Shown here: piece after piece, positions 1,485 through 57,438 of the stretch
How the letters are laid out: each line of letters begins with the position of its first letter
How positions within the stretch are numbered: the first letter of the stretch is position 1
NCBI GenBank assembly: GCA_043823745.1
Contig: JBDRAN010000028.1
Span: 67,116-131,115, forward strand
Direction: 5' to 3'
Source: Candidatus Omnitrophota bacterium
GTDB taxonomy: Bacteria > Omnitrophota > Gorgyraeia > Duberdicusellales > 4484-171
Length of the DNA stretch: 64,000 nt
The notes under the pieces: generated by a model
Seen by the model: the letters and a program-made list of their open reading frames with translations, nothing else
The model's database searches: none
Told to the model about the DNA's origin: nothing
Translations under genes and position numbers: made by a program

Positions 1485-1512
1485 CTCTTTTTAGTTGCCC
1501 CATTTTGACCCG

Positions 1513-40095: not shown

Positions 40096-40123
40096 TTGAC
40101 AGCTACCCCATTTATGCTACAAT
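40096..40123 (+). promoter_or_regulatory. Sigma70-like promoter (TTGACA-16 nt-TACAAT)
   Basis: Consensus -35 and -10 hexamers with a 16-nt spacer, in an AT-rich divergent intergenic region upstream of the + strand secretin module. Confidence 0.5.
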
Positions 40124-40338
40124 CGAATTACGGTACATACGATAAGTTCGGTATGTCGATCTATTAGTATAATATATATACTAAAACGCACGCGTTGCAA
40201 CGTACGTTTTATATTTATTTTTTTTCGGACGCGTTATTGTTATACTTCGCCGGTGTTTTAAGTATAACCCGTACGGGATGGAGCCAAAGGCGAGAGCCGG
40301 GGGGCCAGAGGCGAAGGGGTTACCAACGGGATACATCA

Positions 40339-40590
40339 ATGACCGAAAGCAATAAAAGCAGCGAACAAGCTCGTGTCATTTCCGCAAAGGATATTGTTGC
40401 ACAATACAATATCACCTACCAAACGGTCAATCATTACACAGATTTTGGATTATTGCCGGTTGTCACCAAGAAGGGTAACGTGCGTTTTTACGATACTGAC
40501 CTTATTGATAAGCGTTTAACGCAGATAGAGGAGTTCAAGAGGGAAGGTTATTCGTTGCGGCTTATCCGTAAGAAACTTATTGGAATATAA
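40339..40590 (+). CDS. Small MerR/excisionase-like HTH DNA-binding protein
   Basis: ISAKDIVAQYNITYQTVNHYTDFGLLP HTH motif. The ATG at 40339 lies inside the longer listed ORF. Confidence 0.5.
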   Translation: MTESNKSSEQARVISAKDIVAQYNITYQTVNHYTDFGLLPVVTKKGNVRFYDTDLIDKRLTQIEEFKREGYSLRLIRKKLIGI

Positions 40591-40736: not shown

Positions 40737-41615
40737 ATGAGTTATTATAAAGTTTTAGGATTTGACAAAGAGCCGTTTTCCACAAGTCCGGACCCTGATT
40801 TTTTTTATCTTTCCAAGGAGCATGAGACAGCGCTTACGAACATCCTGATCGAGCTGCGCTTAAAACGGGGGCTTTCAGTCATTCTGGGTGATGTGGGCAC
40901 CGGGAAAACGACCCTTTCGCGCAAGCTTATCCAGGAGTTAAAATCGCGTGACGATTTTGTGTTCCATATGGTGCTTGACCCCTCGTTTGACGATGAGCAG
41001 CTTTTTCTTACGTCACTTGCGCGTAACTTTGAGATTGCGTCCGTTCAGCAACCCGGCGCGACCGTACTTGATTTGCGTGAGGCGCTGGAACGGTTTCTTT
41101 TCCAGAAGGGAGTAAACGAGCACAAAACAATTACCCTGATCGTTGACGAGGCCCAGAAACTCAGCGACGGGTCGCTTGAGCTCTTACGGGTTCTTCTGAA
41201 CTATGAGACCAACGAGTATAAGCTCCTGCAGCTTATTCTTCTGGGGCAGCTTGAGTTGTATTCGCGCATCATGGGTATCGCTAATTTTTTTGACCGTATC
41301 AGTTTTAAGTATACCTTAAACCCTCTCGATATTAACGAGACACGCGAAATGATCGAGTTTCGCGTCCGCCAGGCGGGTTATAAAGCAAACATGTATATTT
41401 TTCTTGATGATGCGATCAGAGAGATTCATCAGCATACCCGGGGTTATCCGCGCCGCGTGACGATGCTTTGTCACAAAGCGCTTAAGAGCCTGGTGCTTAA
41501 AAATAAATTTGTAATTGACGCGGAAATTATTCGGGAGTTGATTCAAGAGGAGCATAAGCTCGGGTGGTACAATGCAAACGCCGTGCCTCAGAAGGCAGTG
41601 GTAAAAGCAGAATAA
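40737..41615 (+). CDS. ExeA/GspA/MshM-like AAA ATPase
   Basis: ILGDVGTGKTT Walker A and LIVDEAQ Walker B. 292 aa. Confidence 0.7.
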   Translation: MSYYKVLGFDKEPFSTSPDPDFFYLSKEHETALTNILIELRLKRGLSVILGDVGTGKTTLSRKLIQELKSRDDFVFHMVLDPSFDDEQLFLTSLARNFEIASVQQPGATVLDLREALERFLFQKGVNEHKTITLIVDEAQKLSDGSLELLRVLLNYETNEYKLLQLILLGQLELYSRIMGIANFFDRISFKYTLNPLDINETREMIEFRVRQAGYKANMYIFLDDAIREIHQHTRGYPRRVTMLCHKALKSLVLKNKFVIDAEIIRELIQEEHKLGWYNANAVPQKAVVKAE

Positions 41616-41619
41616 TAAT

Positions 41620-43224
41620 ATGAGTATTCAAATCAGATTTTTTCGTCCTCGTTTGGCGCGCACCAAGAGTTTTTTTATTCTCGTTATTCTTGCGATCGTG
41701 TTTACGCTCGCCGTCAGCCTTCTGCGCCGTGAGCCTGAAAAATCAGCGAACACGGTGCGGGACGTAACCGTTCCTTCGGCGTCGTATCCGCTGGCCCGCC
41801 GGCCGACGAGCTCCGCCGCCGCGGGATTTGCCCGCGCACGCGCGCTGCGAACGAAAGGGTCGGTTCAAGAAGCCTCGGCGGCCGAAGCGCCTTCATCCCG
41901 TACCCAGCCTGCCGTTGAGAAAAGCCTGTGGCGCATTAAAGGATACATGAAGAGCGCTGCCGAGGCAAACGCGTTCCTCAAGGAGAAGGCGGCGCTTCTG
42001 GGTAACCTGCTTGAGGCAAAAGCAAAAGAAACAGAGCATCTGACGCAGGAAAACGCGCGCCTTAAGAATGATGTGGAAACGATACAGAAAGAGCAAACCA
42101 GGCTGAAAGGTAAGTTTGCCGCACAACTCAGTAATCTGAACGTGCAACTTGCTCAAAAAGACCTCGTGCTGTCGGGGCTTAATACCGCCAAGCGTAACCT
42201 TGAGGGCGAGCTGAATAGCCTTGGCAACAAAATTACCGGCCTCTCAAGCGCGCATGATGCCGTGCAGTTTCAACTTGCAAATGCATTGGCCGGCAAAACA
42301 AGCCTCGAGGAGTCGGTGCGTAAGCTCACCGATGACCTTGCGCGGCAGAATACCGCCAATGAAGCGTTACATAAAAATGTTGAAGAATTAACGGCTGCCT
42401 TGCGAGACAAAGAAAGTCAGCGCCAGCTCGTCGCGGGCGAGCTGGAACAATTAGGGATATTTAAGAAAAATATCGAAGCGGAGCTCGTCAGTCTTAAGCG
42501 CAACAAGAGTGAGCTTTCTTCTGCGGCGCAGGATTTGGAAGCGCGGCTTGCTGAGGCTGTCACCGCAAAGAGCGGCCTTGAAGGGGAGTTGCGGAGCATT
42601 AAAGAAGAGCTCGCCAAGCAGCTGGCGGTGAATGAGGCTTTAAATCGCAGCGTGAATGAGCTATCGGATCGCGCCAACCAGGCAGAAAGTCGTGGACGCT
42701 CAAGCGCCGACGTCCAGGCTCAGTTTGACGCGTACCGGGCGCAGTCTGAGGCGCGCATCAGGGAACTCACCGATGCGCAGGCAGAGAGTGAAAAGAAAAT
42801 TCAGGAATTTCTCAATCGCATCGAGGAGCTTACCCGGGCATCCGATGCAACCAAAAAATCCACTTCAGAGCTTTCTGAGATTATCGCTCAAAAAGAACTT
42901 TCGATCAACGAGAAGCAGCGTGAGATTGAAAAGCTCACCGGGCTTCTGCAAAAAACGACCGCCGAGCGTAATAATCTTATTCTTACGCTTGAAGAGCGGG
43001 AAAGAAGCATCAATGGTTTACGCGCGGCCCTTAAGAATATGGAAGCCCAGAGCGCTGTCCTGCAACAGGAGCTTGGTTCAGGGCGCAGCTATGAGGCTGA
43101 TGCCGGCCGGCAGCTTGAGCAGGCCAAGGCGTTGAATAATTCTTTGAAGAAAAAGATCAGCAATCTTTACGTGGAGCTGGAATTGCTTCGCGTTGAAAGC
43201 GCGCAGCAGGCCCGATCGCAATAG
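41620..43224 (+). CDS. Membrane-anchored coiled-coil protein
   Basis: N-terminal TM segment (FFILVILAIVFTLAV), then about 400 aa of heptad-rich E/K/L/A sequence. Confidence 0.5.
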   Translation: MSIQIRFFRPRLARTKSFFILVILAIVFTLAVSLLRREPEKSANTVRDVTVPSASYPLARRPTSSAAAGFARARALRTKGSVQEASAAEAPSSRTQPAVEKSLWRIKGYMKSAAEANAFLKEKAALLGNLLEAKAKETEHLTQENARLKNDVETIQKEQTRLKGKFAAQLSNLNVQLAQKDLVLSGLNTAKRNLEGELNSLGNKITGLSSAHDAVQFQLANALAGKTSLEESVRKLTDDLARQNTANEALHKNVEELTAALRDKESQRQLVAGELEQLGIFKKNIEAELVSLKRNKSELSSAAQDLEARLAEAVTAKSGLEGELRSIKEELAKQLAVNEALNRSVNELSDRANQAESRGRSSADVQAQFDAYRAQSEARIRELTDAQAESEKKIQEFLNRIEELTRASDATKKSTSELSEIIAQKELSINEKQREIEKLTGLLQKTTAERNNLILTLEERERSINGLRAALKNMEAQSAVLQQELGSGRSYEADAGRQLEQAKALNNSLKKKISNLYVELELLRVESAQQARSQ

Positions 43225-43461: not shown

Positions 43462-44136
43462 ATGATGGCAAAGGACGACAAAGCGCGTACGCCGGAGAAA
43501 AACCTGCTTAACCTCATTGAGACTCCTTCGTCGCGCGCGCCACTTTCAACCGCGACTATTAAACACCATGGGTTCAGCCTTTTTTCACCGGCGGCTCTTA
43601 AGGGTAGGTTTTCTTTTCTGCGCAATAGCCTTAAGAGCGGATTCAAATTACCCGATTTTTCTCAATTTGACGTTAAGCTGCTGAACGGCATTCTTCGGAT
43701 CGTTATTGTTGTTTTGACGGTTTATTTTTTGCTGAGCCTGGCGGGTTCGATGGCCGACCTGCGTAAGGGGTTTACGGTCACCTCGGAAGAAGGGGTAAAA
43801 GGCGTTGAAGAGCCCGCGGCTATTTCGTTTTTGAAAGCAGCGTCATATTATCTCGATAAAGCCCGTCAGCGTGATATCTTTACGATGGGTTTAAGAAAAG
43901 TTTCGGCTCCGGGCGGCAAAGTCAGTGTCAGCAGAATTATCGAGGAGACGAAAGATTTTCGCCTGGTGGGGATATCGTGGTCGGCTGACCCGGACGTGAT
44001 GATTGAGGACATTAAGAATAAGCGCACCTTGTTTCTTAAAAAAGGGCAACTGATCGATAACAAGATCAAGCTTAAAAGCGTTTTTAAGGATAAAGTTCTT
44101 TTAAGCTATGGAGGCGAGGAGATAGAATTACGATGA
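43462..44136 (+). CDS. Secretin-associated inner-membrane protein (GspC/PilP/MshK-like, tentative)
   Basis: Single TM segment (ILRIVIVVLTVYFLL) and a C-terminal beta-rich domain. ATGA overlap with the secretin start. Confidence 0.35.
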   Translation: MMAKDDKARTPEKNLLNLIETPSSRAPLSTATIKHHGFSLFSPAALKGRFSFLRNSLKSGFKLPDFSQFDVKLLNGILRIVIVVLTVYFLLSLAGSMADLRKGFTVTSEEGVKGVEEPAAISFLKAASYYLDKARQRDIFTMGLRKVSAPGGKVSVSRIIEETKDFRLVGISWSADPDVMIEDIKNKRTLFLKKGQLIDNKIKLKSVFKDKVLLSYGGEEIELR

Positions 44137-46115
44137 TGGTCAAGCGGCATACCACTTCATTCGTTGCCCGGCTTTTTGTTGGCGCGCTGTCGTTTTCTTT
44201 GGGGCTTGGCGCGAATGCGCCCCGCGTGGCGGGAAACCAGGCCTTTTCGTACGTTGTGGCCGAATCCGCCGCCGCGCGCGAAGACCTTGTCTCGGCCGCG
44301 CCCCAGGAACGCATATCGCTTAATTTGCGCAACATCGACATAATCGAGGCGCTTAAGTTTTTCTCTCTTCGCTCAGGCTATAATATTATCCCTACCCAGA
44401 AAGTCGCCGGCCGCGTGACGCTTAACGTTGAAAATGTAACGGTAAAAGATGTCTTTGACGTTATGTTGCGTTCCAATAATCTTGCCTACGATAAGCGGGG
44501 CGACATCTATAATGTTATGACGGAGGCGGAGTACAAGCAGCTGTACGGAAAGAATTTTTTTGACAGCCGTCAGGTTAAGGTATTCCGGCTCAAATATGCG
44601 ATACCCGAACAGGCGTTCAGCCTTCTTGATGCGATTAAAAGTGATATCGGCAGGCTCTTGGTGGATTCAGAGTCAGGTTCCGTGGTGATTATCGATACGC
44701 CGGAAAAAATTGCGGAAGCGGAAAGCGCCCTCTCAGCCATGGAGCAGAAGAATATGGTAAAGGTGTTCACGCTTAAATATGCCAAGGCAAAGGAAGTCGA
44801 GGAGCAGCTTAAAGTCCAACTCGATCTTAAAAAGGTCGGCCTTATCAAGGCCGACGAGAGGACGAACCAGGTTATCGTGCAGACGCTGCCTGAGCGCATG
44901 CAGAATATCGAAGAGCTTATTACGAGCCTTGATAAAAAAACCAAGGGCGTGCTTATTGACTGTAAGATTATTAAAATAAAGTTAAGCGACCAGCGTGACC
45001 AAGGCATTCAGTGGGAAGGCCTTTTTAATATTGCCAAAGCCTATGGCATGGCGTATCTGGGCTCCTATCCCTTTAGCGTGATGACTGCCGGAATCACCAA
45101 TCCCGCCTTTACCTCACGAGCCGATTATGCCAACACGGTCAACAGCGCCGGCCAGTACCCTTTTAGCGGCACAACCTCAAGCCTTAATGCAAGCACAAAG
45201 GTTGCGCCGGGTGAGAGGATGCATGTCGGGATCGTCGGCTCCAAGACCGATTTCGACGTTTTGATTAAATACCTGCAGACCTTGGGTAATTCTAAAATAA
45301 TGGCAAGCCCGTCGCTGGCGGTCGTCAATAACCAGGAAGCAAAGATCCATATCGGCGAGCGAAGGGCCTACATTACGACAACGACGACCACCGGGTCCAC
45401 AACGTCGACTGTTTCCGAGGAGGTAACGTTTGTTGACGTGGGAGTGCGCCTGTCGGTGATCCCTACGATCAATGACGACGGGTATATCACGATGAAGGTG
45501 AAGCCGGAAATAAGCAGTATTATCGGCAGCATTACTTCCTCCAGCAATAACGTGGTCCCCATTATCGACACTAATACCGCCGAAACAACCGTTATAGCCA
45601 AGGATGGTTCAACCGTTATCATCGGGGGCATGGGAAGGGAGGAGGTTACGGAAGGCTCCGAGGGGGTTCCGTTTCTCAGCAAAATTCCCATTATCGGTAA
45701 TCTTTTTAAGAATAGTACGAAACGCAAAGAGCGCGTTGAGCTGATTATTATGATTACCCCTATCATTTTTGAAGGGGATAAATTCATTACCACCAAAGAC
45801 GCAGACAAGTTTCCGGTTAAGCCGGTAAAAAAATTCGATGTTTTCAAGCAGGAATCGCCCCTGCCGCAATCGTCCTTAAGCAAGCCGATGACATCACCGG
45901 AAATCTATAAGGGGCTTAAGCGCCCGGAGCTAGGAGCGGCCGGCCCTATACATACCGGCTCAGGCGTTCCGCTTCCGTTTCAAAGGGATGTTTCCGCTAA
46001 AGGTTTTAAGATGTATGAAGGATTTTCTTCGAATCAGGACGTGACTGATGACGCGGTTAAGAAGTTTTCCGGCGGCGATAGCCAGGCAGTGAAAGGTTTT
46101 AAACCGTATAATTGA
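44133..46115 (+). CDS. Secretin (PilQ/MshL/GspD family)
   Basis: N0-like domain LNLRNIDIIEALKFFSLRSGYNII. Secretin core VVNNQEAKIHIGERRAY...VGVRLSVIPTINDDGYITMKVKPEISS...VIIGGM. Confidence 0.85.
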   Translation: MMVKRHTTSFVARLFVGALSFSLGLGANAPRVAGNQAFSYVVAESAAAREDLVSAAPQERISLNLRNIDIIEALKFFSLRSGYNIIPTQKVAGRVTLNVENVTVKDVFDVMLRSNNLAYDKRGDIYNVMTEAEYKQLYGKNFFDSRQVKVFRLKYAIPEQAFSLLDAIKSDIGRLLVDSESGSVVIIDTPEKIAEAESALSAMEQKNMVKVFTLKYAKAKEVEEQLKVQLDLKKVGLIKADERTNQVIVQTLPERMQNIEELITSLDKKTKGVLIDCKIIKIKLSDQRDQGIQWEGLFNIAKAYGMAYLGSYPFSVMTAGITNPAFTSRADYANTVNSAGQYPFSGTTSSLNASTKVAPGERMHVGIVGSKTDFDVLIKYLQTLGNSKIMASPSLAVVNNQEAKIHIGERRAYITTTTTTGSTTSTVSEEVTFVDVGVRLSVIPTINDDGYITMKVKPEISSIIGSITSSSNNVVPIIDTNTAETTVIAKDGSTVIIGGMGREEVTEGSEGVPFLSKIPIIGNLFKNSTKRKERVELIIMITPIIFEGDKFITTKDADKFPVKPVKKFDVFKQESPLPQSSLSKPMTSPEIYKGLKRPELGAAGPIHTGSGVPLPFQRDVSAKGFKMYEGFSSNQDVTDDAVKKFSGGDSQAVKGFKPYN

Positions 46116-46174: not shown

Positions 46175-49100
46175 ATGAAAAAAATAATCGTTATTTTCTT
46201 TGTAGCCATGATGGTGTCGGTGTGCGGATTCGCGCGTAACGGAAACGGTTCGCCGGCGAGCGTTGATGATGAATTAAGCGGCCTCTTGGATGATTTTAAT
46301 AGTCTCAAAGAGGAGCTCGCGGCTGCGAGGGACGATTACCGGAATCTCACGAGTGAATACATGCAAGCCTCTGTGGATGCTCAGGCGCAGCTTGCCGCCG
46401 CCGCCGCAGAGCGCGCCGCGCTTAGTGCACAGCTTGCCCAGGCCCATGCCGCGCGGGAAACATTAAAGCTGCGCTATGAGCAGGCGCAAAGCTCGATTGC
46501 AGAAAAAGAGGGGTTTATCAATGAGACGGAGCGCGCCAGGCAGAAACTTGCGAATCAGCTTAAAGATATTGAAGATAAGTTTTCTCAGACACAAGCCTCC
46601 GGCGATCGCGCGCGCGCCCAATTGCAGCAAACGGCAAGCGACCTTACGAATAAAGAAAAGAATCTTGCGGAGATTGAGAATACCCGCCAGCAATTGAACA
46701 TGAATCTTAAGGAAACAGAAGCGCGGCTCGCGCAAATCGTCTCTGAGAAGGCAGCCATCGTAACCCAGCTTGCCGCCTACAAAGCCAAAGAATCCGGCTG
46801 GCAGCAGCGCGCCGGACAGCTTGCCGGCGTTATTGCCGAAAAAGAAAAAGCGATTATCAATGCAACAGGCGCAGCCAATCAGGTTAGCGTAAAACTTAAA
46901 GACTATGAAGCGAAGCTAGCCGCTCTTGAATCTCAGAAAACAGTACTCGAGAAGCGCGTTCAAGAGTCACAGGCTCGCGAGCAGGCACTCGAGGCGCAAG
47001 CGCAGCAGGCTGGCGCGAACCTTCAGGGTAACGAAAAAACTCTAAACGAATTAACACAGGCTAAGCAGCAGCTTCTTGTCCAGGCACAAGAGCTCCAATC
47101 GCGTCTTGCGGCAACACTCCAGGAAAAAGATAAGGCGCTTGCGGAACTGGCAACAACCAGGGAACAACTTCTCGCTCAGACAAAGGAATTAGAAACTAAA
47201 TCAGCGGCGGTGCAATCAGAAAAAGCCAGTCTCAACAGTCAGCTCGCCGCCTACAAAGCCAAAGAAACCGGTTGGCAGCAGCGCGCGAATCAGTTCGCGG
47301 AGACGATCGCCGAAAAAGAAAAAGCGATCGCGGATCTCGCAGCCGCAGGCAAGCAAGCCAGCGCGAAGCTCAAAGAGTACGACGAAAAGATCGCGGGGCT
47401 TGAATCCCAAAAAGCCGCGCTCGAGGCAGCGGCGAAAGGCCTGCAAACGCAGGGACAGTCGGCGCGCGTGCAGCTTGAGCAGACGGCCGCAGCGCTTCAG
47501 GAGAAAGATAAAGCACTGGTGGAGCTGACGAAAGCAAAGGAACAGTTCCTTGTTCAGATAAAAGAGCTGGAAACGAAGTCGGCAGCCCTGCAATTAGATA
47601 AAACAAACCTCGACGGACAGCTCGCCGCCTACAAAGCCAAAGAATCCGGCTGGCAGCAGCGCAGCCAGCAGCTGGCAATGGAGGCTAAGGATCTTGAGGC
47701 AAAATTTTCGCAGGTGAGTTCTGAAAAATCAGCGCTTCTGCCGCAGCTGGCCGCCTACAAAACCAAGGAAGCCGGCTGGCAGCAGCGCAGCCAGCAGTTA
47801 ACCGAACTGGTCAGCGAGAAAGAAAAAGGTATCGCCCAGCTTACGCAATCAGAAAATAATAACAACAATCTTATCAAAGAATATGAAGCGCGAATAACGA
47901 TTTTGAATCAGCAACGGATGGCTCTTGAAACACAGATAAAAAATATGAAAGCAAAAGTTGATTCGTTTGATGCGCAGCTAGGGCAGATGGTCGCCGCCGG
48001 GCAAGAGAAGGAACGTGAGTTTGCGCAGCTTGAACATACTCGTCAGCAACTGGTGGCGCAGGCTAAAGATCTTGGAAGCAGTCTTGCTCAAACGCTTTCG
48101 GAAAAAACAGCGCTTACCGGTCAGCTCAATGGCTACAAAATCAAGGAGGCGGGGTGGCAAGTGCGCAGCCAGCAGCTTGCAAGCGATATCGCTGATAAGG
48201 AGAAAACGATTGAAGCACTTACACAAACAGGTACTCAGACTGCCGCAACTTTGAGGGATTACGAAACAAAGATAGTTGCCCTTGAGTCACAGCGAGCGGC
48301 TCTTGAGTCTAAGATGCAAGACGCGCAAACGCAGCAAGAGTCGTTGCGGGTGCAGTTTGGAGAGGCAACGAGAGTGCTCCAGGGAAGAGACAAAGCTCTT
48401 ATGGAGCTGGCGAAGGCCAAAGAGCAGCTTCTCGGCCAGATAAAAGAGCTGGAAGCTAAATCAGGAACCCTGCAAATAGACAAAGAAAGCCTTGACGGGC
48501 AGCTGGCCGCCTACAAAACCAAGGAAGCCGGCTGGCAGCAGCGCGCCGGGCAGCTTGCCGGCGTTATTGCCGAAAAAGAAAAAGCGATCATTCAACTCTC
48601 GCAGGAGAAAACCCAAATACTCACTCAACTACGCGAAACCAGGGAGAAGTATGCACAGGAAGTATCGGCGCGCGAAGCGTTACGTAAACAGTTTGATGAA
48701 CTGAGCGAGAAAGAAAAAGCCTTGCGAGCGCAGACTGCGTCCGAAAAAGGGTCTCTCGAAGCGCAACTTAATGCCTACACGACCAAAGAGGCCGGCTGGC
48801 AGGTACGCTCTGGACAATTATCTACCGCTATTACCGATAGAGATAAAAATATCGCGGAACTCAAACAAACAGTGTATCAGAATGCTATTCAGCTTAAGGA
48901 TTATGAAGCACAGAGTGCCGCGCTGCAGCTTGAGAAGGCGGCTCTTGCCACGCAGTTCAAAGAGCTGCAGCTTAGAGAGCAGGCCGCCCAGATGAGCACG
49001 CAACAGGCGGTCGCGAGCCTGCAGGAGAAGGAAAAAACAATCGCCGGCTTGGCTCAAAGTCATCAGATTACCGCCATACAACTTAAAGGCTTTGAGGCAC

Positions 49101-50017
49101 AGCTTGCCCACGCAGCGAATGAAAAGTCTGAATTGCAAAAACAACTCGTTCAATGCGCGGCTACCATGGGGGATAAGGCTAAAATCATTTCTGGCCTGAC
49201 AGAAGACTTTAAGCATTCCAGTATGCAGGTTAGAGAGTCAGAAATAAAAATGGCGCAGCTTCGGAGCGAACGTGCCGGCCTGCAGAATCAATTTACACAG
49301 ATTAATGATCTCCTGCAGCAAAAAATGAAAACCATCGTGACACTTCAGGCCCAATACAATGAGCTCGCTAAAAAGCAGGAGGCAATCGTTACGCAGTTTA
49401 ACAATAGCGAGATGGCGTTAGGAGTTTTACAATCAGAAAAAGTAACGCTTGACGGCCGCGTTAGGGATTACGAGCTTAAAGAGCAAGCATGGCTCGCGAA
49501 AAATGAGCAGCTGGCGGCTGCTATTGATATGAAGGAAAGAAATGTTAAAGATTTACTGACTCTGCAACAGAACTATGAGACGCAACTGCGCGACGTTCAG
49601 CGGCAGCAGGGTCAGCTGCAGGAAAAAAACACCCTTCTTTTTAAGGATAATAAGCTTCTGAAACAAAAAGTCGATCTCTATGCCGGCAGGCTTTCAAAGA
49701 TGGCGGTGCTTAAAGACCGGCTTTTAAAAGAAAACTCAGTCTTGCACTACAACCTCGGTGTTTTTTACCTGCAGCGGCAGGATTATAATGAGGCGATCGT
49801 TGAGTTTGAGAAGGTCCTGGAGCTTAGCCCCGATGACGCGGCTACCCATTATAATCTTGGGCTTGTCTATTCTGAATATCTCGATAATAAGCCAAAGGCG
49901 ATCGCGCATTTTAAGCGGTACCTTACGCTTGACCCCAAGGACAAAGATGCCGATCGCGCGCGTAAATATATTTTAACATGGGAAACGTGGCAGGATGAAC
50001 GGCCGGAAAGTCATTAA
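46175..50017 (+). CDS. Giant (1,281 aa) secreted or lipo-anchored coiled-coil protein with about eight ~120-aa repeats and a C-terminal TPR domain
   Basis: Signal peptide MKKIIVIFFVAMMVSVCGFA. Repeated LAAYKAKESGWQQRAGQLA...EKEKAI units. C-terminal YNLGVFYLQRQDYNEAIVEFEKVLELSPDDAATHYNLGLVY TPRs and a KYILTWETWQ tail. RBS GAGGGAG upstream. Confidence 0.7.
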   Translation: MKKIIVIFFVAMMVSVCGFARNGNGSPASVDDELSGLLDDFNSLKEELAAARDDYRNLTSEYMQASVDAQAQLAAAAAERAALSAQLAQAHAARETLKLRYEQAQSSIAEKEGFINETERARQKLANQLKDIEDKFSQTQASGDRARAQLQQTASDLTNKEKNLAEIENTRQQLNMNLKETEARLAQIVSEKAAIVTQLAAYKAKESGWQQRAGQLAGVIAEKEKAIINATGAANQVSVKLKDYEAKLAALESQKTVLEKRVQESQAREQALEAQAQQAGANLQGNEKTLNELTQAKQQLLVQAQELQSRLAATLQEKDKALAELATTREQLLAQTKELETKSAAVQSEKASLNSQLAAYKAKETGWQQRANQFAETIAEKEKAIADLAAAGKQASAKLKEYDEKIAGLESQKAALEAAAKGLQTQGQSARVQLEQTAAALQEKDKALVELTKAKEQFLVQIKELETKSAALQLDKTNLDGQLAAYKAKESGWQQRSQQLAMEAKDLEAKFSQVSSEKSALLPQLAAYKTKEAGWQQRSQQLTELVSEKEKGIAQLTQSENNNNNLIKEYEARITILNQQRMALETQIKNMKAKVDSFDAQLGQMVAAGQEKEREFAQLEHTRQQLVAQAKDLGSSLAQTLSEKTALTGQLNGYKIKEAGWQVRSQQLASDIADKEKTIEALTQTGTQTAATLRDYETKIVALESQRAALESKMQDAQTQQESLRVQFGEATRVLQGRDKALMELAKAKEQLLGQIKELEAKSGTLQIDKESLDGQLAAYKTKEAGWQQRAGQLAGVIAEKEKAIIQLSQEKTQILTQLRETREKYAQEVSAREALRKQFDELSEKEKALRAQTASEKGSLEAQLNAYTTKEAGWQVRSGQLSTAITDRDKNIAELKQTVYQNAIQLKDYEAQSAALQLEKAALATQFKELQLREQAAQMSTQQAVASLQEKEKTIAGLAQSHQITAIQLKGFEAQLAHAANEKSELQKQLVQCAATMGDKAKIISGLTEDFKHSSMQVRESEIKMAQLRSERAGLQNQFTQINDLLQQKMKTIVTLQAQYNELAKKQEAIVTQFNNSEMALGVLQSEKVTLDGRVRDYELKEQAWLAKNEQLAAAIDMKERNVKDLLTLQQNYETQLRDVQRQQGQLQEKNTLLFKDNKLLKQKVDLYAGRLSKMAVLKDRLLKENSVLHYNLGVFYLQRQDYNEAIVEFEKVLELSPDDAATHYNLGLVYSEYLDNKPKAIAHFKRYLTLDPKDKDADRARKYILTWETWQDERPESH

Positions 50018-50020
50018 CCC

Positions 50021-50073
50021 AAAAAATGCACGCTTCGCAGCCCCCTTCGGGGACGCTTCGCAGGCATTTTTTG
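50021..50073. repeat. Intergenic repeat/hairpin element (aaaaaatgc...acgcttcgcag-cccccttcgggg-acgcttcgcag...gcatttttt)
   Basis: Direct 11-mers flank a CCCC/GGGG mini-hairpin and are bracketed by inverted aaaaaatgc/gcatttttt. The core matches the GC-rich repeat family. Confidence 0.5.
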
Positions 50074-50336
50074 CCCGAATACCCTGGCGGGTAGGCTGTC
50101 CTTTGCCTATACATCGCGAAAATCTCAACGATATTTTCACGATAGGCTGCAGGACGCCATTGGTGTCACCATAATGGGAGGTCGCGCACGGGCCGCCGCC
50201 GAAATTTCTAAGCCGAAGGCTACCCAGCAGGGTGTCCTGTTGGACTATGGGAATTTCGGGAAACGGCGGGGTATACCGGAAAAATGTTGAACCTTTCAAT
50301 TGCATTTTTCCGGTTAAGAGGGGAAAGTAATCGGCG

Positions 50337-52304
50337 ATGAAATTATTAAACACAATCAGGCGCGGGCGCATGTGTGTTTGCCTTGTAAACATTCTTGTCT
50401 TATCTGTGGTGTTGTTGCCGCTGGCACACGCCGCAGAAGAGGCGGTATCGATCATCGATGAGGCGGTCATAGAGGCAGTTCCTGGCGAGACCCTCGCCCA
50501 TGAGGCGGTTGCGTCACCGGCAAAACTCGAAGAAGAAGAGATAGCGGGAAAGGAGGATAAAGAAATAGCGGCGGCAGCCGAGGAAAGCGAAGAGGAAGCG
50601 CTGAAGCGCCTGCGCCAGAGCATGAGCGAGGATGAGCTTTTCAGCCAGCGCGTATCGCTTGATCTTCGTAATATCGATGTTCTTGAAGCGCTCAAATTCC
50701 TCTCGACAAAAAGCGGCCTTAATATCGTCCCCACGAAAAATGTTTCCGGCCGGGTCAGCCTTACGATCGAGGACGTCCCTTTTAAGGATGTGTTTGATCT
50801 CCTGCTGCGCTCAAACGGCCTCGCGTACACAAAAGTCGGGAAAATTTATTCGGTAATGACCGAGGCGGAATATAAAGCGTTGTACGGGAAAAATTTCTTT
50901 GACGTCCGGCAGGTTAAGGTTTTACGCTTGCAATACGCGATACCCGAGCAGGCATTTACGATGCTTGACGCGATAAAGAGCGACCTGGGGCGCGTTATCA
51001 CCGATAAAGAATCGGGCAATGTCATGATCATGGATACGCCCGAGCGTATCGTTCAGATGGAAGCGGCGCTGGCGGAATTTGAAAAGCGCAATATCGTGAG
51101 AGTTTTTTCCTTAAAATACGCGCGCGCCAAAGAGGTCGAGGAGATCCTGCGCAGCCGGCTTGACGCAAAGAGCGTCGGTTCAGTGAAGGCCGATGAGCGA
51201 AATAATCAAATTATTGTTCAGACGCTTGCCGATCGTATGGACGAAATTACGACCCTTATCGGGCGCCTTGACCGGACCACCAAGGAAGTGCTCATCGATA
51301 CGAAAATTATTAAAATAAAACTTTCGGATCAGTTGACCTCGGGCCTTGAATGGGAAGGGCTTTTTAATGTTCTGAAGAAATTCGGCGGGACCTATCTTGG
51401 CTCGTATCCCTACAGCGTCATGAATGCCGGCGTTACCACGCCCGCGTTTCAGACGCGCGTTAATCAACTGGACAGCACGGGAGGCAATGTCGGATACTAC
51501 CCGTTTAGCGGCACCACCCCAGCATTAAGTACCAGCACTAAAACTGTTGTCGGTAAAAACATGCACTTTGGCATGGTTTCCGAGGATCTTGATTTTGACC
51601 TCCTTCTTAATTATTTTAATACCATCGGTAAAACCCGGGTGCTGGCAAATCCTAAAATCATCGTGGTAAACAATCAGGAGGCAAAAATCCATATCGGCGA
51701 GCGCCAGGCCTACGTTACAACGACCACAACCACGGGGCAATCCACCAGCACTGTTTCCGAAGAGGTCCAGTTCGTGGATGTGGGCATACAGCTATCCGTA
51801 ACCCCCACGATCAATGACGATGGTTTTGTTACCATGAAGGTTAAGCCGGAAATTTCAAGCGTCAGTTCGATTTTAACGACACCGACGGGAAATAAGATCC
51901 CTATTATTGATACGTCGTTAACCGAAACCACGGTTATGGTCAAGGATGGAGTTACACTGCTCATCGGCGGCTTACGCAAAGAAGAAAAATTCCTTGATTC
52001 CACGCAAACCCCGTTTTTGGGTAGTCTTCCGTTCGTGGGGAACCTTTTTAAAAGCTCGACCGATAAGACAGACAGGACTGAGCTTCTGGTTATGATAACG
52101 CCGCATATCGTTGCCGGAAATGATTTTGAAGCCGGTGCGGCGCGTGAAATCGGCGATAAGCCGCCGAAAGATTACCGCCAATATCAGCCGATTACACCCG
52201 ATAAAACGTTGCTTCCCGCCGGAGCCACACAAGGCCCGGCGCTTGCGCCTAAGTCGTACCGTGATTATTTAAGTTTTAGCGAAAAAAAAGGCGAGGATGC
52301 GTAA
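50337..52304 (+). CDS. Secretin paralog (PilQ/MshL/GspD family)
   Basis: About 65% identical to the 44133 product across the N0 and secretin domains. Acidic E-rich N-terminal extension. Confidence 0.85.
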   Translation: MKLLNTIRRGRMCVCLVNILVLSVVLLPLAHAAEEAVSIIDEAVIEAVPGETLAHEAVASPAKLEEEEIAGKEDKEIAAAAEESEEEALKRLRQSMSEDELFSQRVSLDLRNIDVLEALKFLSTKSGLNIVPTKNVSGRVSLTIEDVPFKDVFDLLLRSNGLAYTKVGKIYSVMTEAEYKALYGKNFFDVRQVKVLRLQYAIPEQAFTMLDAIKSDLGRVITDKESGNVMIMDTPERIVQMEAALAEFEKRNIVRVFSLKYARAKEVEEILRSRLDAKSVGSVKADERNNQIIVQTLADRMDEITTLIGRLDRTTKEVLIDTKIIKIKLSDQLTSGLEWEGLFNVLKKFGGTYLGSYPYSVMNAGVTTPAFQTRVNQLDSTGGNVGYYPFSGTTPALSTSTKTVVGKNMHFGMVSEDLDFDLLLNYFNTIGKTRVLANPKIIVVNNQEAKIHIGERQAYVTTTTTTGQSTSTVSEEVQFVDVGIQLSVTPTINDDGFVTMKVKPEISSVSSILTTPTGNKIPIIDTSLTETTVMVKDGVTLLIGGLRKEEKFLDSTQTPFLGSLPFVGNLFKSSTDKTDRTELLVMITPHIVAGNDFEAGAAREIGDKPPKDYRQYQPITPDKTLLPAGATQGPALAPKSYRDYLSFSEKKGEDA

Positions 52305-53396
52305 ATGAAAATGCAGGCAGGATTTTTGAAGATCATCATTAACCGGAACGTTATCTTTTTTGTTGTTCCTCTTGCCGCGGCGCTCATGGCAGCGTCATAT
52401 TTTGCCCTGAAAGCTCATACATATTCCGCGCGGCTTCGCGCGCAAGGCGGAACGTATGAGAAATTCAACAAAGAAAACGTTGAACTGCGTGATGCGTATG
52501 TTACCATAAAAAATGATTACGAAAAGATAAAAAAAGACTACGACAACATCTCGGCTGACCGCGATAATCTTCTTATCCAGATAAAGAAAAATGTCGCTGA
52601 TGTAAACCGCCTAGCCGAGCTTGAGGCAGCAACCGGAGAATTTACTAAAGAAAAGGATGGGCTTGAAAGCGAAAAGCTGGCGCTTCTTAACCAGAATGCC
52701 GATTTAAAAGAAAAAATCGATAAACTCCAGGGTGTGTATAAGCAGGCGCTTGATGCGCGTGACGCGCTCAGCGAAGAGCTCGTGCGCGCAAAAGACGCTT
52801 CGGGAAAAATGGTCCTTGAGCAGCAGAATGCTGAGCTTACCAGGCGCCTGGCTGCCGCACAGGAGGAAAACGGGCGCCTGCAGAGCGCTCAATCGGCAAC
52901 GCTTAAGCAGGCGCTGGATACGGTCACCACGCTTAAAGCGAGCGACGCGCAGCTGCAGGATAAAGTTAAGGAATACCAGCTTCACGAGAAAGAGTTAACC
53001 AAGAAATACGCCGAGGCGGTTAAGAAAACAAAATCCTTTGAAGCCAAGGTCGCGCGAGACCCGGCAAAGTTTACGGAAATTGCGCGGCAGAATAAGGCGC
53101 TTATACGCGATACCTCCACCATGCATTACAACATGGGGGTATTTTACTTAAAACAAAAAGAATATTCGCGCGCGGTAGCGGAATTTGAAAAAGCGGTTGA
53201 GCTTACTCCGGACGACGCCTACGCGCATTTTAATTTAGGTTATATGTATGCCGAGTATCTGGTGAATCGTAAAAAAGCAGTGGAGCATTTCAGGCACTAC
53301 TTGCGCGTCGCAAAGAGTGACGATAAAGACGTCGATTGGGTCAAAAAATATATCCTTACATGGGAAACATGGCAGGCTCAACAGCCAATGAAATAA
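52305..53396 (+). CDS. Coiled-coil + C-terminal TPR protein (short paralog of 46175-50017)
   Basis: N-terminal TM/signal, about 230 aa coiled coil, and a TPR tail ending KKYILTWETWQ, identical to the giant paralog's tail. Confidence 0.65.
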   Translation: MKMQAGFLKIIINRNVIFFVVPLAAALMAASYFALKAHTYSARLRAQGGTYEKFNKENVELRDAYVTIKNDYEKIKKDYDNISADRDNLLIQIKKNVADVNRLAELEAATGEFTKEKDGLESEKLALLNQNADLKEKIDKLQGVYKQALDARDALSEELVRAKDASGKMVLEQQNAELTRRLAAAQEENGRLQSAQSATLKQALDTVTTLKASDAQLQDKVKEYQLHEKELTKKYAEAVKKTKSFEAKVARDPAKFTEIARQNKALIRDTSTMHYNMGVFYLKQKEYSRAVAEFEKAVELTPDDAYAHFNLGYMYAEYLVNRKKAVEHFRHYLRVAKSDDKDVDWVKKYILTWETWQAQQPMK

Positions 53397-54448
53397 AACA
53401 GTTCTTTGGAAAGCTGGCCGCCTGCATAAGCGCAGGGGTATTTTTTTTCTCTGTATCAGGCTGCGGAAACGGTGCGTCTGCGCCGGCATTGCCGGCGCAG
53501 GTAGCGGCAGGCGCCGGTAACGAATCGGTGCGTCAACCGGATGCCGCGGAGGCTTCGGCCGACAACAATGCTGACGGTTTTGTCGGAGAGATCTTCGGTG
53601 AAAAGGTTCCGATAAACAATTATTATTTTGTGCGCGGTGTGATCGCGGTGTTCGGCAATAAGTTTGGCGCGCCGCCAAACACAAAAGAAGACCTTGAAAG
53701 TGCGATTTGGGATCAGCTCCTGTTGTCTCTGGTGGCGTTCAGCCAGAATATCAGCGTCACGCAAGAAGAAATTGACGCCGAGATAACCAGAACGCTTGCC
53801 GCGGAGCACACGGCCTTCGACCGCGTTAGCGATCCCGAAAATTACCATGAGTGGCTGCAGAAAAAAGCTGGCCTGACTCCGGAGCTTTTTGAAAATCAGA
53901 TCAGATATCTCCTGCAGCTTCAGAAACTTAAAAATCATGTTATCGACACCGTTGTTGCTCCAAGGATTACAGTAAGCGACGAGGAAGCCTACGAGGCTTT
54001 TTTACGCGAGCATAACACACTTGCGCTTGAACTTGTGCAGTTTAAGGCGCAAGAAGAGGCTGGTGCGTTCTATAAGAAAGTTGCAGGCCGTTCACGCTCC
54101 TGGGATCGGGAAAAGACGCGGTATGAAAAGGATGTACGTAAGCCGGGGTTTGTGTCGCTCGAATTTCTAATCGATCTTTGGGGAATACCTGCCGACGCTG
54201 CGTTTGCAATGGTGACGCGGTCTATCGGGGATATCTATCCGCCCCGGCCGGTCTATAAAGGATATGCGGTGTTTAAAATTCTCCAGACGCGCCAGGCAGA
54301 TACGTCGCTTTTTCCCGGAGCAAAAGAAAACTATAGGGAAAAAGTAAAGGCAAAGAAGAAAGTTTCAGGCTTTGCGAATTGGTTTGTAGGGCTTAAAAAC
54401 GCGGCCCAGATAAAAATATATGGCGAAGTACGAGATAATGTGCGATAA
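53369..54448 (+). CDS. Lipoprotein with SurA-N-like chaperone domain (tentative)
   Basis: Lipobox VSGC after a hydrophobic h-region. Alternative ATGs at 53360 and 53369. The function call is weak. Confidence 0.35.
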   Translation: MAGSTANEIKQFFGKLAACISAGVFFFSVSGCGNGASAPALPAQVAAGAGNESVRQPDAAEASADNNADGFVGEIFGEKVPINNYYFVRGVIAVFGNKFGAPPNTKEDLESAIWDQLLLSLVAFSQNISVTQEEIDAEITRTLAAEHTAFDRVSDPENYHEWLQKKAGLTPELFENQIRYLLQLQKLKNHVIDTVVAPRITVSDEEAYEAFLREHNTLALELVQFKAQEEAGAFYKKVAGRSRSWDREKTRYEKDVRKPGFVSLEFLIDLWGIPADAAFAMVTRSIGDIYPPRPVYKGYAVFKILQTRQADTSLFPGAKENYREKVKAKKKVSGFANWFVGLKNAAQIKIYGEVRDNVR

Positions 54449-54492
54449 TAGCAACTAATATGTTTTGTATCGGGAGAAAGAAGGAGGGCATC

Positions 54493-54999
54493 ATGAAGAG
54501 AATGGTTGTTCCCTTGGCGGTTTTATTTTTTGTAGCAGCCTGCGGCGTGAGCTTTGCGGCTGACAAGAAAAGAGTAGCAGCGCGCATGGGGTTATCCGAA
54601 CAGCAGCGGGTAGCGATTGCGGAGGATGCCACCGCGGCTATGACCGCTCAGGCGTGGACTATTTATCTGACTCAGCAGAACGTCGCGAGACCCAGCGTGC
54701 AGACCGACACACTCACCTTTACTTCTATGACCGTTGCTTCAACGAATCTTGTTGCCAAAGGCTATAATGTTTCTAGCTACGCGCTTAAAATAAACGATGA
54801 TGGTGGCGCGGTATGGGAAACAGTCCAGCGCAACGCGGATGACGATCTGGCGCTCTGGCGCGGCGAGTACCGGGAAGACGGGATTAACGGCGTTGTAACG
54901 ATGCGTTCAAAATCAGGCGCAACCGTGATGTATAATTTCTCAAGCGCAATGCCGGCGCTTAAGGAAGTTGGTGAGTCCGCGCCGCCAAAGAAGAAATAG
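54493..54999 (+). CDS. Small lipoprotein, unknown function
   Basis: MKRMVVPLAVLFFVAAC lipobox. Confidence 0.4.
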   Translation: MKRMVVPLAVLFFVAACGVSFAADKKRVAARMGLSEQQRVAIAEDATAAMTAQAWTIYLTQQNVARPSVQTDTLTFTSMTVASTNLVAKGYNVSSYALKINDDGGAVWETVQRNADDDLALWRGEYREDGINGVVTMRSKSGATVMYNFSSAMPALKEVGESAPPKKK

Positions 55000-55308
55000 T
55001 ATTTTCGGGAGGTGTTCAGGCGCATCAGAAGAGTTCAGAGCGTCGGGGTTTTTTGTATTCTATATATAGGTAAGAAGATGGCTCCTTTGTTAGCATTGGT
55101 AGCTATGGGTGAGACGTGCATAAGAAGAGTCTTTATACATCCCAGGGTTGTTTATGGAACCCTGGGATATTTTATTAATGAGCGCATTCTTTTTTCAAGC
55201 GACCGAAAGGGAGCGTAGAAAAAAGAATAGTGCGAATTATCTAATGAAGCTTGTCACGATGTAATCGTGACTTAGCTAAATTATCCTCGAAGGGGACAAG
55301 AAGCCTTT

Positions 55309-55496: not shown

Positions 55497-55907
55497 ATGG
55501 AGATAAAAAAGGTTCTCAGAGAGTTTAAAGTAATGACGAGGGAGCTTTATGGCCGGAGACTAAAAGAGATAATCCTTTACGGCTCCTGGGCGAGGAATGA
55601 GGCAACGCAAGACTTGGATATAGATTTGTTGATTATTCTTAAAGGAAAGGTTACCCCAGGTAGAGAGATAGATAAAATGATAGATATAATTACAGAGTTA
55701 AATTTGAAATATGGAGTGCTTTTAGCGGTTTATCCCGTTAGAAAATACCCTGTGGCTTGCTACAGGGTTCTTCCAAATTTTACGAACACGGGGTCTAATA
55801 CCCCGTGTGAGTTTTCTAACGGGATTTATCCGGTTTCTGAGGAAGAGCACTCTTTTTTTAAAAGCCCCCTGCTGATGAATGTACGAAGAGAGGGGGTGCC
55901 GGCATGA
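55497..55907 (+). CDS. MNT-type minimal nucleotidyltransferase (antitoxin of a HEPN/MNT pair)
   Basis: LYGSWARNEATQDLDIDLLII GSx(9-13)DxD motif. Confidence 0.75.
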   Translation: MEIKKVLREFKVMTRELYGRRLKEIILYGSWARNEATQDLDIDLLIILKGKVTPGREIDKMIDIITELNLKYGVLLAVYPVRKYPVACYRVLPNFTNTGSNTPCEFSNGIYPVSEEEHSFFKSPLLMNVRREGVPA

Positions 55908-56212
55908 AAAGGAAGGGAGCCGCACCGTTCATTAAAAGGGCGGAGAGATATCTTAAGAGTGCCCGGTTGCTCCTCAAAGAGGGCGACTACGAATCTTGTG
56001 TATCGAGGGTTCGATTTGGTTTTGAATATATAGAATCATTGCTGATGGCTTCGGGCAGAAAAATAATAGTAGTCGATAACACCGAGATGAAAGATGATTT
56101 AGTTCAGGATATGATTGATGTATTAACCAGTTTCTGCGCAAGATTATATGGCCGGCGTTCAGCGAAAAACCGGGCGAAAAAAGCCATACAGGCGATAGAT
56201 AATGCTGATTAA
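55904..56212 (+). pseudogene. Chimeric ORF: HEPN toxin N-terminus (about 35 aa) fused in frame to the C-terminal ~65 aa of an IS607-type serine-recombinase TnpA
   Basis: KRAERYLKSARLLLKEGDYESCVSR is a HEPN N-terminus. It is followed by VRFGFEYIESLLMASGRKIIVVDN...LVQDMIDVLTSFCARLYGRRSAKNRAKKA, typical of an IS607 TnpA C-terminus. It overlaps the tnpB start as in IS607. Confidence 0.6.
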
Positions 56213-57438
56213 CCAAGCCTATAGATACGAATTGAAGCCCAACAATAAACAAAAGACGTTGTTGGCAAAACACGCCGGCGTCGCCCGGTTTGCTTATAAT
56301 TGGGGCCTGGTCCGGCGAAAAGAGTTATACGAAAAAACGAAGGGAAGTACAACCGCCGTAAACCAGCACCGGGAATTGAATAAGCTGAAAAAAAGTGAAT
56401 TTCCCTGGATGTACGAAGTATCAAAATGCGCGCCGCAGGAAGCTTTAAGGGATTTACATCAAGCTTACCAGAATTTTTTCCGTGAGCTTAAAAAAGGCAA
56501 GAAAACAGGATTTCCCAAATTCAAAAAGAAAGACATGCATGATTCATTCCGTCTGACCGGCGCAATTGGGGCGACAGACAATACTGTACAGCTTCCCCGG
56601 CTGGGGAAAATCCGCGCAAAAGAAAGAATTGATTTAAAAGGAAGAATACTATCGGCTGCAATCAGTAAAGAGGCTGACCGGTGGTATGTAAGTTTTGCCG
56701 TAGAGAGAGATAGGAAGATAGCGGTTAATAATAACGGGGAAGCGGTGGGCATAGACCTCGGGTTGGAAAACTTCGCGGTTTTATCAGACAGCAGTCAGAT
56801 ACCTAATCCCATGTTCTATAAAAAATCATTGCGATTATTGCGGCGGAGCTGCAAGCAGCTTACCCGTAAACAAAAAAGCTCCTATAATCGCAAGAAAGCC
56901 ATAATTAAACTGAGCCGTTTACATCGCCGCGTCCGGAATAAACGGTTTGACTTTTTACATAAAGCGAGCACAGAGTTGGCGAAAACCAAGTCAATGATTG
57001 TGGTGGAAAGCTTAAATGTAAAAGGGATGGTAAAAAACCGTTGTCTAAGCGGCGCTATCAGCGATGTTGGTTGGGGCATGTTCAAAGCCATGTTGAGATA
57101 TAAGGCTTCCTGGTATGGTTCAAAACTGATAGAAGCGCCGGACTTTTTCCCTTCATCGCGGATATGCAGTAACTGCGGCACTTATAATGCCGCTTTAGAA
57201 CTAAGTGACCGCGTATTTGAGTGTCCGGGATGCGGATTGCGAATCAACCGCGATTTAAACGCGGCGGTTAATTTAAAGAAGTATACTACCGCAAGTTCTG
57301 CGGGAAGTTACGCCTGTAGAGATACCTCTGGCGGCGGAATTCCGATAAAACGGGAGTCTACGAGTCATGTATCGCTGAAGCAGGAAGCAGACGCCAAATC
57401 TTCCTCGGGAATATTTGGGTAAGTTCTGTGGAACGGTT
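56009..57438 (+). mobile_element. IS607-like element remnant (5'-truncated tnpA + intact tnpB) inserted in a HEPN gene
   Basis: The host HEPN reading frame stops at about 56009 and resumes at about 57439 ([14 protein letters not shown]). Confidence 0.6.
56202..57422 (+). CDS. tnpB: TnpB (IS605/IS607 OrfB family RuvC-like RNA-guided endonuclease)
   Basis: N-terminal [15 protein letters not shown]. Ruv[13 protein letters not shown], Ruv[14 protein letters not shown], zinc finger CSNCG...CPGCG, Ruv[14 protein letters not shown]. Confidence 0.85.

Follow-up and report, generated by a model that had tools for sequence, protein, structure and literature searches.

A giant coiled-coil gene behind a secretin gene

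In a 64,000-nucleotide (nt) stretch of a Candidatus Omnitrophota contig (JBDRAN010000028.1, positions 67,116 to 131,115; the whole stretch is called the window, and all positions without another label are counted in it), an open reading frame (ORF) at 46175-50017 on the + strand lies just downstream of a secretin gene. It starts with ATG, 8-9 nt after a ribosome-binding site AGGGAG, and codes for 1,280 amino acids (aa) followed by a stop codon. The gene named by the first-pass annotation, a model's reading of the same letters, is therefore real as drawn, while its 1,281 aa become 1,280 plus the stop. We call the product the long CC-TPR, for coiled coil and tetratricopeptide repeat (TPR). It is laid out as a signal sequence, a conserved head, a coiled coil of ~1,150 residues and a conserved C-terminal mini-TPR domain, and we rate it, from sequence, as a putative secretin accessory protein of the TPR kind to which a giant, evolvable coiled coil has been fused. 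An identical-sequence lookup returned no record of the exact protein. The features of the gene are as follows.

46175..50017, + strand: long CC-TPR gene (ORF with ribosome-binding site; Pfam TPR_1 at aa 1190-1221, E=1e-12)
46175..46237, + strand: predicted signal peptide, aa 1-21, MKKIIVIFFVAMMVSVCGFA, with putative cleavage before RN
46256..46360, + strand: conserved N-terminal head motif, DDELSGLLDDFNSLKEELAAARDDY..., ~35 aa
46262..49729, + strand: coiled-coil rod, ~1,150 residues, with three +4 stutters near aa 67, 310 and 860
46739..46864, + strand: W-motif block A, unit 1, aa 189-230
46766..46858, + strand: near-identical DNA patch, copy 1 (pairs with 48500-48592)
47213..47338, + strand: W-motif block A, unit 2, aa 347-388
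47591..47716, + strand: W-motif block A, unit 3, aa 473-514, a solitary 42-aa block
47717..47842, + strand: W-motif block A, unit 4, aa 515-556
48095..48220, + strand: W-motif block A, unit 5, aa 641-682
48473..48598, + strand: W-motif block A, unit 6, aa 767-808
48500..48592, + strand: near-identical DNA patch, copy 2 (pairs with 46766-46858)
48737..48862, + strand: W-motif block A, unit 7, aa 855-896
49430..49555, + strand: degenerate W-motif block, unit 8, aa 1086-1127
49730..50014, + strand: C-terminal mini-TPR domain, two TPR repeats and a capping helix, ~95 aa

Signal sequence and head

The residues ahead of Cys17 are V-S-V, which does not match the lipobox [LVI][ASTVI][GAS]C: Val occupies position -1, where G, A or S is wanted. 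N-termini of the long-type orthologues carry AxA sites before Q/E, and their Cys is not conserved. The lipoprotein-type signal proposed earlier is thus not borne out on either count, and a signal-peptidase I signal is probably the better description of the long CC-TPR. Directly past the predicted cleavage site comes the head motif (Y/F)(E/D)DEL...(N/D)DF.xLKEEL....Y..L. Aligned over the long-type orthologues of loci L004, L005, L007, L084, L087, L092, L001 and L002 (numbers of the loci described below), it is kept in the long-type clade.

A coherent heptad rod

Compared with shuffled sequences, aa 31-1165 have a hydrophobic Fourier power of z=55 at period 3.5 and show no signal at periods 3.4 and 3.6, so that the heptad phase is coherent across more than 1,100 residues. 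A single Pro occurs between aa 28 and 1218 (~1,190 residues), and Ala, Gln, Leu, Glu and Lys make up 58% of the long CC-TPR. The rod thereby has the sustained 3.5 periodicity and the scarcity of helix breakers of a canonical left-handed coiled coil. A local register map divides it into four blocks, with position a at 5, 2, 6 and 3 mod 7 and +4 shifts between blocks; the longest unbroken heptad run covers ~550 residues. At 0.1485 nm per residue, ~1,150 residues would extend 165-170 nm if straight. The very long coiled coil of the first-pass annotation is hence confirmed, its coiled-coil propensity being plain from the z score, and its ~190 nm shrinks to 165-170 nm, which is still far beyond a normal periplasm.

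An AlphaFold2 (AF2) model of aa 180-600 from a single sequence (predicted local distance difference test, pLDDT, 75) is helical throughout except for a two-residue break at the midpoint; the resulting hairpin is a usual artefact of modelling a monomer. A spectrin-like three-helix-bundle reading of the 126-aa unit described below was rejected, as the register crosses the G/N-rich linkers. The same model has no three-helix bundles, its helix being continuous.

Repeat units in the protein and the age of the array

A motif search of the protein found seven strong units matching QL(A/N)(A/G)Y(K/T)xKExGWQ(Q/V)R...(E/D)(K/R)(E/D)K, with their Trp at aa 209, 367, 493, 535, 661, 787 and 875. An eighth, degenerate unit has its Trp at aa 1106, so the count of about eight units made earlier was right, with seven clear Y-x6-W units and one degenerate. 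When the sequence is set out in rows of 42 residues, these units appear embedded in a 126-aa super-repeat of three 42-aa blocks: block A is the W motif, block B reads ...LKDYExK..LESQK... and block C reads ...LQEKDKAL.EL.KAKEQLL.QIKELE.KS.... The array comprises about five full super-repeats and partial ones. Motif spacings of 42, 126 and 231 aa are multiples of seven, and the two of the form 7n+4 (158 and 88 aa) fall at the stutters near aa 310 and 860. This match places the Trp, and the Tyr seven residues earlier, at position d in all eight units; a Glu sits at an a position between them.

At the DNA level the units are mostly diverged. In-register pairs share 55-72% of nt over 141 nt and 55-78% over a 31-codon core. 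The sole near-identical pair is 46766-46858 and 48500-48592 (93 nt, 7 mismatches, 92% identity, offset 1,734 nt), and its flanks are 31-38% identical. Centred on the W motif, six more segments of 60-70 nt with 80-85% identity emerged from a sliding-window self-comparison. All seven high-identity stretches lie at in-frame offsets, and codon-shuffled controls produced no 60-nt window reaching 85% identity or more. The longest exact repeat within the gene measures 46 nt. Tandem Repeats Finder reported no array of 42-, 126- or 378-nt units, since the copies are too diverged; its output was limited to two short arrays with low scores, of 9- and 12-nt period.

Several near-identical repeats of ~90 bp had been announced in the first-pass annotation; one such pair exists, at 92% over 93 nt, and the others range from 55 to 85%. 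The example given there (46775-46865 and 48498-48590) is 11 nt off register and, as written, 30% identical. The recent expansion deduced from it does not hold for this gene: the units are 55-78% identical in nt, the W unit is common to distant orthologues, and the array is, by these comparisons, old. The 93-nt patch looks like a short conversion tract, a selectively conserved core, or both. Codon identity at shared residues is 0.82 in this pair and 0.70-0.90 in the other pairs among units 1, 2, 3, 4 and 6; being barely above other pairs, it does not separate the two. Origin of the patch by recent duplication was rejected, as the flanks are at random identity.

The C-terminal mini-TPR domain

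AF2 modelled the C-terminal 140 residues from a 20-sequence alignment with pLDDT 93, as the end of the long helix, two TPRs and a cap. This is the most conserved part of the CC-TPR family, with 16 invariant columns in alignment A1, and over the C-terminal 142 aa the long CC-TPR is 42% identical to its short paralogue CC-TPR2 (52305-53396). Compared with the Protein Data Bank (PDB) by Foldseek, the domain matched designed and consensus TPRs, OGT and MamA, that is, TPR structures in general. The family is recognized by a C-terminal ...LHYNLGVFY...HYNLG...DKD..(K/R)YI(L/M)TWE, a signal or anchor, a coil and a gene placed directly after a secretin, all of which the long CC-TPR displays.

A secretin module conserved in Omnitrophota

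The genes that accompany the long CC-TPR gene are listed below.

40737..41615, + strand: GspA/ExeA/MshM-like ATPase (Pfam AAA_22, E=3e-21; TIGR03015, 185 bits against a cutoff of 324.5)
41620..43224, + strand: second coiled-coil protein predicted to be exported, 534 aa with an N-terminal transmembrane (TM) anchor and ~430 aa of heptad coil, between the ATPase and GspC-like genes
43462..44136, + strand: GspC-like bitopic inner-membrane protein, 224 aa, with HR domain (T2SSC and 3OSS matches)
44133..46115, + strand: secretin 1 (Pfam STN, Secretin_N and Secretin; PilQ/GspD-like by NCBIfam, below cutoffs)
46092..46112, + strand: KGFKPYN motif at the C-terminal end of secretin 1, a candidate TPR ligand
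50337..52304, + strand: secretin 2, 58% identical to secretin 1
52305..53396, + strand: short paralogue CC-TPR2, 363 aa, with TM anchor, ~200-aa coil and the same TPR domain
54460..54999, + strand: small lipoprotein, lipobox VAAC, at the end of the module, with orthologues in most loci

As these genes show, the locus is a duplicated pair of secretin and CC-TPR behind a GspA-like ATPase and a GspC-like protein. The assignment of the latter is consistent with its orthologues, 25 of 29 of which match PF11356 T2SSC (best E=1.8e-10) and whose profile matches the GspC HR domain (PDB 3OSS chain C, E=8e-5). The ~110-aa tail that follows the secretin domain of secretin 1 (45780-46115) contains the basic-aromatic KGFKxY twice, as AKGFKMYEG and as the terminal VKGFKPYN, and the same doubling is found in L004 (7700-7901). 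A gene-sized gap at the position of the 534-aa coiled-coil gene occurs only in the closest relatives, L004, L005 and L007; BLAST found no similarity between this protein and the rod of the long CC-TPR. The small lipoprotein is possibly a true pilotin.

Candidatus Omnitrophota is the source of the homologues of the C-terminal domain. When one genome per species was scanned, 80 loci came up, the first ~50 of which hold CC-TPR family members; nearly all of these are labelled Omnitrophota, the others being bins that are likely mislabelled. A tblastn map revealed a conserved module of ATPase, GspC-like protein, secretin and CC-TPR, with or without a second secretin/CC-TPR, and a small lipoprotein; the set of ATPase, GspC-like protein, secretin and TPR protein is kept across ~40 loci. 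The CC-TPR gene comes after a secretin gene in ~50 Omnitrophota loci; among 41 complete ones, 39 have no more than 91 nt between secretin stop and CC-TPR start, or an overlap, frequently of 1-4 nt, which bears out the link to the secretin suggested by the first-pass annotation. Secretins paired with long CC-TPRs end in [LF]KG[FL][KR]xYN, and those paired with short ones in [IL]KPx[RK]N. The secretin/CC-TPR pair is, as the gene order reads, often duplicated within the module. In double-secretin loci the gene between the secretins codes for 376 to at least 1,362 aa and the gene after the second secretin for 305-363 aa.

Most members are short: 31 of 41 complete ones measure 201-443 aa and the other ten 529-1,203 aa, members on metagenome contigs reaching 655, 928 and 1,362 aa. 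The typical length is 305-440 aa, and several members have TM anchors that look uncleaved; the long-type relatives have 655, 684, 815, 928, 1,203 and 1,362 aa. A profile search of 1.84 billion representatives found, among the best 150 matches, more than 100 proteins with the C-terminal domain at their end, mostly of 310-440 aa and at most of 1,325 aa. A metagenome scan for same-species relatives gave best full-length matches that are 57-67% identical in the C-terminal 180 aa. The family is large, nearly confined to Omnitrophota and undescribed in the literature searched, where work on Omnitrophota secretins, pili and long proteins does not mention it.

The first protein search had found only proteins of up to 314 aa, many of them fragments of long genes on short or frameshifted contigs. 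In L001 (6000-10700) and L002 (6400-10750), both from sample ERZ1286166, frameshift errors of long-read assembly have apparently broken the long gene and the secretin genes into several ORFs, so that the database ‘proteins’ of 224-243 aa (P0009, P0017) are fragments of genes of ~1,250-1,530 aa.

Other genes adjoin the module at some loci. In L024 the CC-TPR gene is directly followed by an STT3 gene; L002 has an STT3 gene downstream of the module, and L018 has a Wza-like Poly_export/SLBB gene downstream of it. A second AAA_22 ATPase, 30-35% identical to the first, is present just after the small lipoprotein in L018 (11044-12931), L009, L011, L013, L015, L017 and L022. L018 further has an HD_5 (HD-GYP-like) protein after the second ATPase and a histidine kinase and response regulator before the module.

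Rod length changes by in-phase duplication

Fresh duplications are found in several relatives. L004 has an internal duplication of 356 nt (95% identity) at an offset of 756 nt, or 36 heptads, and L007 one of 713 nt (97.5%) at 966 nt, or 46 heptads, with further 246-nt copies at offsets of 27 and 19 heptads. In L006/L001, 151-337 nt are duplicated at 94-95% identity with an offset of 1,005 nt. The closest orthologue, that of L004 (815 aa), aligns to aa 544-1280 of the long CC-TPR at 49% identity and has three W units only; the W motif is absent from the long orthologues of L005 and L033 and occurs in single copy in L007. It is well supported by these sequences that rod length evolves through in-frame duplications, mostly of whole heptads and with the phase mostly kept. 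The length variation put forward in the first-pass annotation accordingly applies to the family, where it comes about by repeat duplication, with the 95-97.5% duplications of L004 and L007, and not to recent events in this gene.

A proposed partner of the secretin and alternative readings

Secretins need small accessory proteins such as pilotins, TPR lipoproteins, GspAB and GspC. We consider it fairly probable that the long CC-TPR is exported by the Sec route, stays unlipidated and serves the secretin encoded just upstream as an accessory or tether protein. Its TPR domain would dock on the secretin, plausibly on the C-terminal [LF]KG[FL][KR]xYN tail; the rod would serve as a long spacer that keeps the N-terminal head, together with a second partner bound by it, a set distance away from the secretin. 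The TM-anchored short paralogues, whose coil of ~200 aa measures ~30 nm, could bridge the periplasm from the inner membrane to the secretin. As ~170 nm exceeds the periplasm width, the rod of the long form would run along the envelope or project out of it. Secretin-binding or -assembling TPR proteins include PilF/PilW, TadD and MshN (PMC10499894; PMC6668835). TadD holds the extreme C-terminus of its secretin RcpA, namely its last four residues, in a groove (PMC10499894; PMC6668835), and we propose a parallel for CC-TPR.

Several points weigh against this proposal. Neither the window nor the inspected flanks contain pilin, GspE/PilB or GspF genes. Foldseek gave only generic TPR matches for the mini-TPR domain and no link to PilF, TadD or BamD. 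Instead of the TPR domain, the small lipoprotein or the secretin itself could be what the secretin tail motif binds. Not being a lipoprotein, the long CC-TPR would have no classical Lol-routed pilotin role, and a 170-nm rod is too long to cross the periplasm, which leaves the picture of a ‘periplasmic tether’ incomplete for the long form.

The last of these points also bears on an unlikely, though not negligible, alternative in which the Sec-exported rod is passed through or anchored in the adjacent secretin as an extracellular fibre or adhesin, reaching up to ~170 nm to tether prey or host cells or surfaces, with the head as distal binding tip. A rod far longer than the periplasm, a cleavable-looking signal that leaves the long forms without membrane anchor, the conserved head motif at the mature N-terminus and the quick length change through duplication, typical of surface fibres, all suit such a fibre, as do the predicted epibiotic or predatory lifestyles of the ultra-small Omnitrophota, which rely on envelope machines (PMC10066038). 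However, the family mostly comprises proteins of 305-440 aa, several of them TM-anchored (including the paralogue at 52305-53396), and the one-to-one gene pairing with frequent start/stop overlap suggests a structural partner of the secretin, not its cargo. Moreover, conservation is highest in a TPR domain, and TPR domains of this kind bind secretins from the periplasmic side; a Pfam scan detected no adhesin-type domains.

Rather improbable in our estimate is a scaffold or ruler stretched out in the periplasm parallel to the membranes, likened to CpoB or tropomyosin, whose eight Y/W sites, one every 126 aa (~18.7 nm), would bind peptidoglycan, polysaccharide or a filament and set the spacing of envelope complexes, for instance of the two secretins. 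It would account for the Tyr-x6-Trp core, an invariant motif that keeps one heptad position throughout the eight units and is also retained by distant orthologues; CpoB shares the layout of signal peptide, coiled coil and C-terminal TPR, and the module recurrently adjoins genes of glycan synthesis or export (STT3, glycosyltransferases, Wza-like). Yet this adjacency is confined to a minority of loci, the W motif is missing in L005 and L033 and occurs once in L007, hence is not essential to the family, and Pfam and NCBIfam gave no TolA_bind_tri or sugar-binding domain match. Very unlikely, finally, is an assembly artefact in which repeats were collapsed, expanded or chimerically joined and the 1,280-aa ORF does not exist as written. 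Related contigs do often break within the gene (5′-truncated in L003, L006, L083, L085, L086, L089, L090, L094 and L096), and the L028 scaffold has a gap inside a repeat; but here the longest exact repeat is 46 nt, a single 93-nt stretch exceeds 90% identity, the ORF stays open for 3.8 kb with the heptad phase held over every junction, and independent assemblies have the same architecture at 655-1,362 aa.

A bolder reading, to which we give equally little weight as to the membrane-parallel scaffold, makes the rod a ruler whose length can be tuned genetically, or a rail for periodic docking, anchored at the secretin and with eight invariant Tyr/Trp sites 18.7 nm apart. Were it true, the rod would project from or follow the envelope and set the reach or spacing of a host or prey contact apparatus, or else align with a filament or glycan polymer that is exported through the paired secretins, and lineages would retune this distance via in-phase heptad duplications. 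A rod of ~170 nm is more than half the diameter of an Omnitrophota cell of 0.2-0.3 µm. A TPR partner of a secretin with a coiled-coil rod of ~30 to ~200 nm, varying by whole heptads, was not described in the literature searched. CC-TPR is conserved throughout an uncultivated phylum of ultra-small, probably host-dependent bacteria and marks a distinctive secretin module. If rod length sets an envelope or cell-contact dimension, the natural series from 305 to more than 1,360 aa would be a ready-made spacing experiment; the rod is also a concrete structure for cryo-electron tomography of Omnitrophota to seek.

Comparison with known systems

What CC-TPR shares with the TPR pilotins PilF/PilW/Tgl, TadD and MshN is a TPR domain and, as partner, a secretin of the type IV filament superfamily. 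MshN is encoded in an operon with the secretin MshL and the ExeA-like ATPase MshM, which mirrors the set of ATPase, HR-domain protein, secretin and TPR protein seen here; counterparts of all four components of an MSHA-type module (MshK-L-M-N) are found in one operon. The MshL model TIGR02519 scored 169 bits against a cutoff of 250, below the PilQ and GspD models, and no MSHA pilin, MshE or MshG gene was found in the window or inspected flanks. Unlike the TPR pilotins, CC-TPR has no lipobox, has two TPRs and a cap instead of five or six TPRs, and carries a coil of 200 to more than 1,100 residues ahead of the TPR. The NCBIfam models of PilW (TIGR02521) and Tgl (NF033762) did not match the long CC-TPR, and for CC-TPR2 they gave 31.5 bits (cutoff 154) and 22.2 bits (cutoff 225), respectively. 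By analogy, the long CC-TPR would work most like PilF/PilW/Tgl, TadD and MshN, yet it stands outside those families.

CpoB (YbgF) of the Tol-Pal system has a layout like that of CC-TPR: this periplasmic protein has its signal peptide cleaved off, begins with a coiled coil and ends in a small TPR domain. Its coil has ~80 aa, however, and the partner gene here is a secretin; TolA_bind_tri (PF16331) had no match at E<=0.01, and no tol-pal genes lie nearby. In the type III secretion ruler YscP and the Braun lipoprotein Lpp, repeats are duplicated or lost, which alters the length of the protein, and this length determines a dimension of an envelope structure. This is analogy only: CC-TPR is unrelated to both in sequence, YscP has no coiled coil, and Lpp has 58 aa and is lipidated. 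A ruler function of the long CC-TPR would be pure inference. Crescentin, Scy/FilP, SMC arms and M proteins form heptad α-helical rods with stutters, as the CC-TPR rod does. The matches to Pfam Rod_CreS (34.6, cutoff 100) and NCBIfam SMC_prok_B (119, cutoff 567) reflect coiled coil only and are compositional. In contrast to the cytoplasmic crescentin, Scy/FilP and SMC and to the wall-anchored M proteins, CC-TPR is a predicted exported protein that lacks ATPase heads and has a TPR domain at its end.

Neighbouring genes in the window

Further features lie in and around the module.

40096-40123: near-consensus sigma-70-like promoter-like site (11/12 matches, extended -10)
40195-40590: small MerR-family-like helix-turn-helix ORF, just 3′ of the promoter-like site
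53336-54448: SurA_N-like lipoprotein
55139-55168: terminator-like hairpin

The MerR-like ORF may encode a regulator of the secretin operon. The gap between the long CC-TPR gene and secretin 2 (50018-50336) is unusually long, at 320 nt. At its start is a terminator-like hairpin, CCCCTTCGGGG, with the direct repeat ACGCTTCGCAG and A6/T6 arms on its flanks. Rfam had no match in the whole window.

Positions 1-39899 are occupied by a large glycan or glycoconjugate cluster with many GT2/GT4/GT9 genes, heptose-pathway genes, an STT3/PglB-like oligosaccharyltransferase (1495-4008), a PMT_2 gene (5203-6846) and at least eight radical-SAM enzymes with B12-binding or SPASM domains. By-eye inspection of the long CC-TPR revealed no PglB-type sequons (D/E-x-N-x-S/T), so nothing points to it as a substrate of the neighbouring STT3 enzyme. 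On the other side of the module, an IS605 OrfB/TnpB-type gene (56202-57422) comes after a nucleotidyltransferase/HEPN pair (55497-56212), and GC content drops to 41-44% across 56-62 kb of the window. The same nucleotidyltransferase/HEPN pair is located 3′ of the secretin module in L001.

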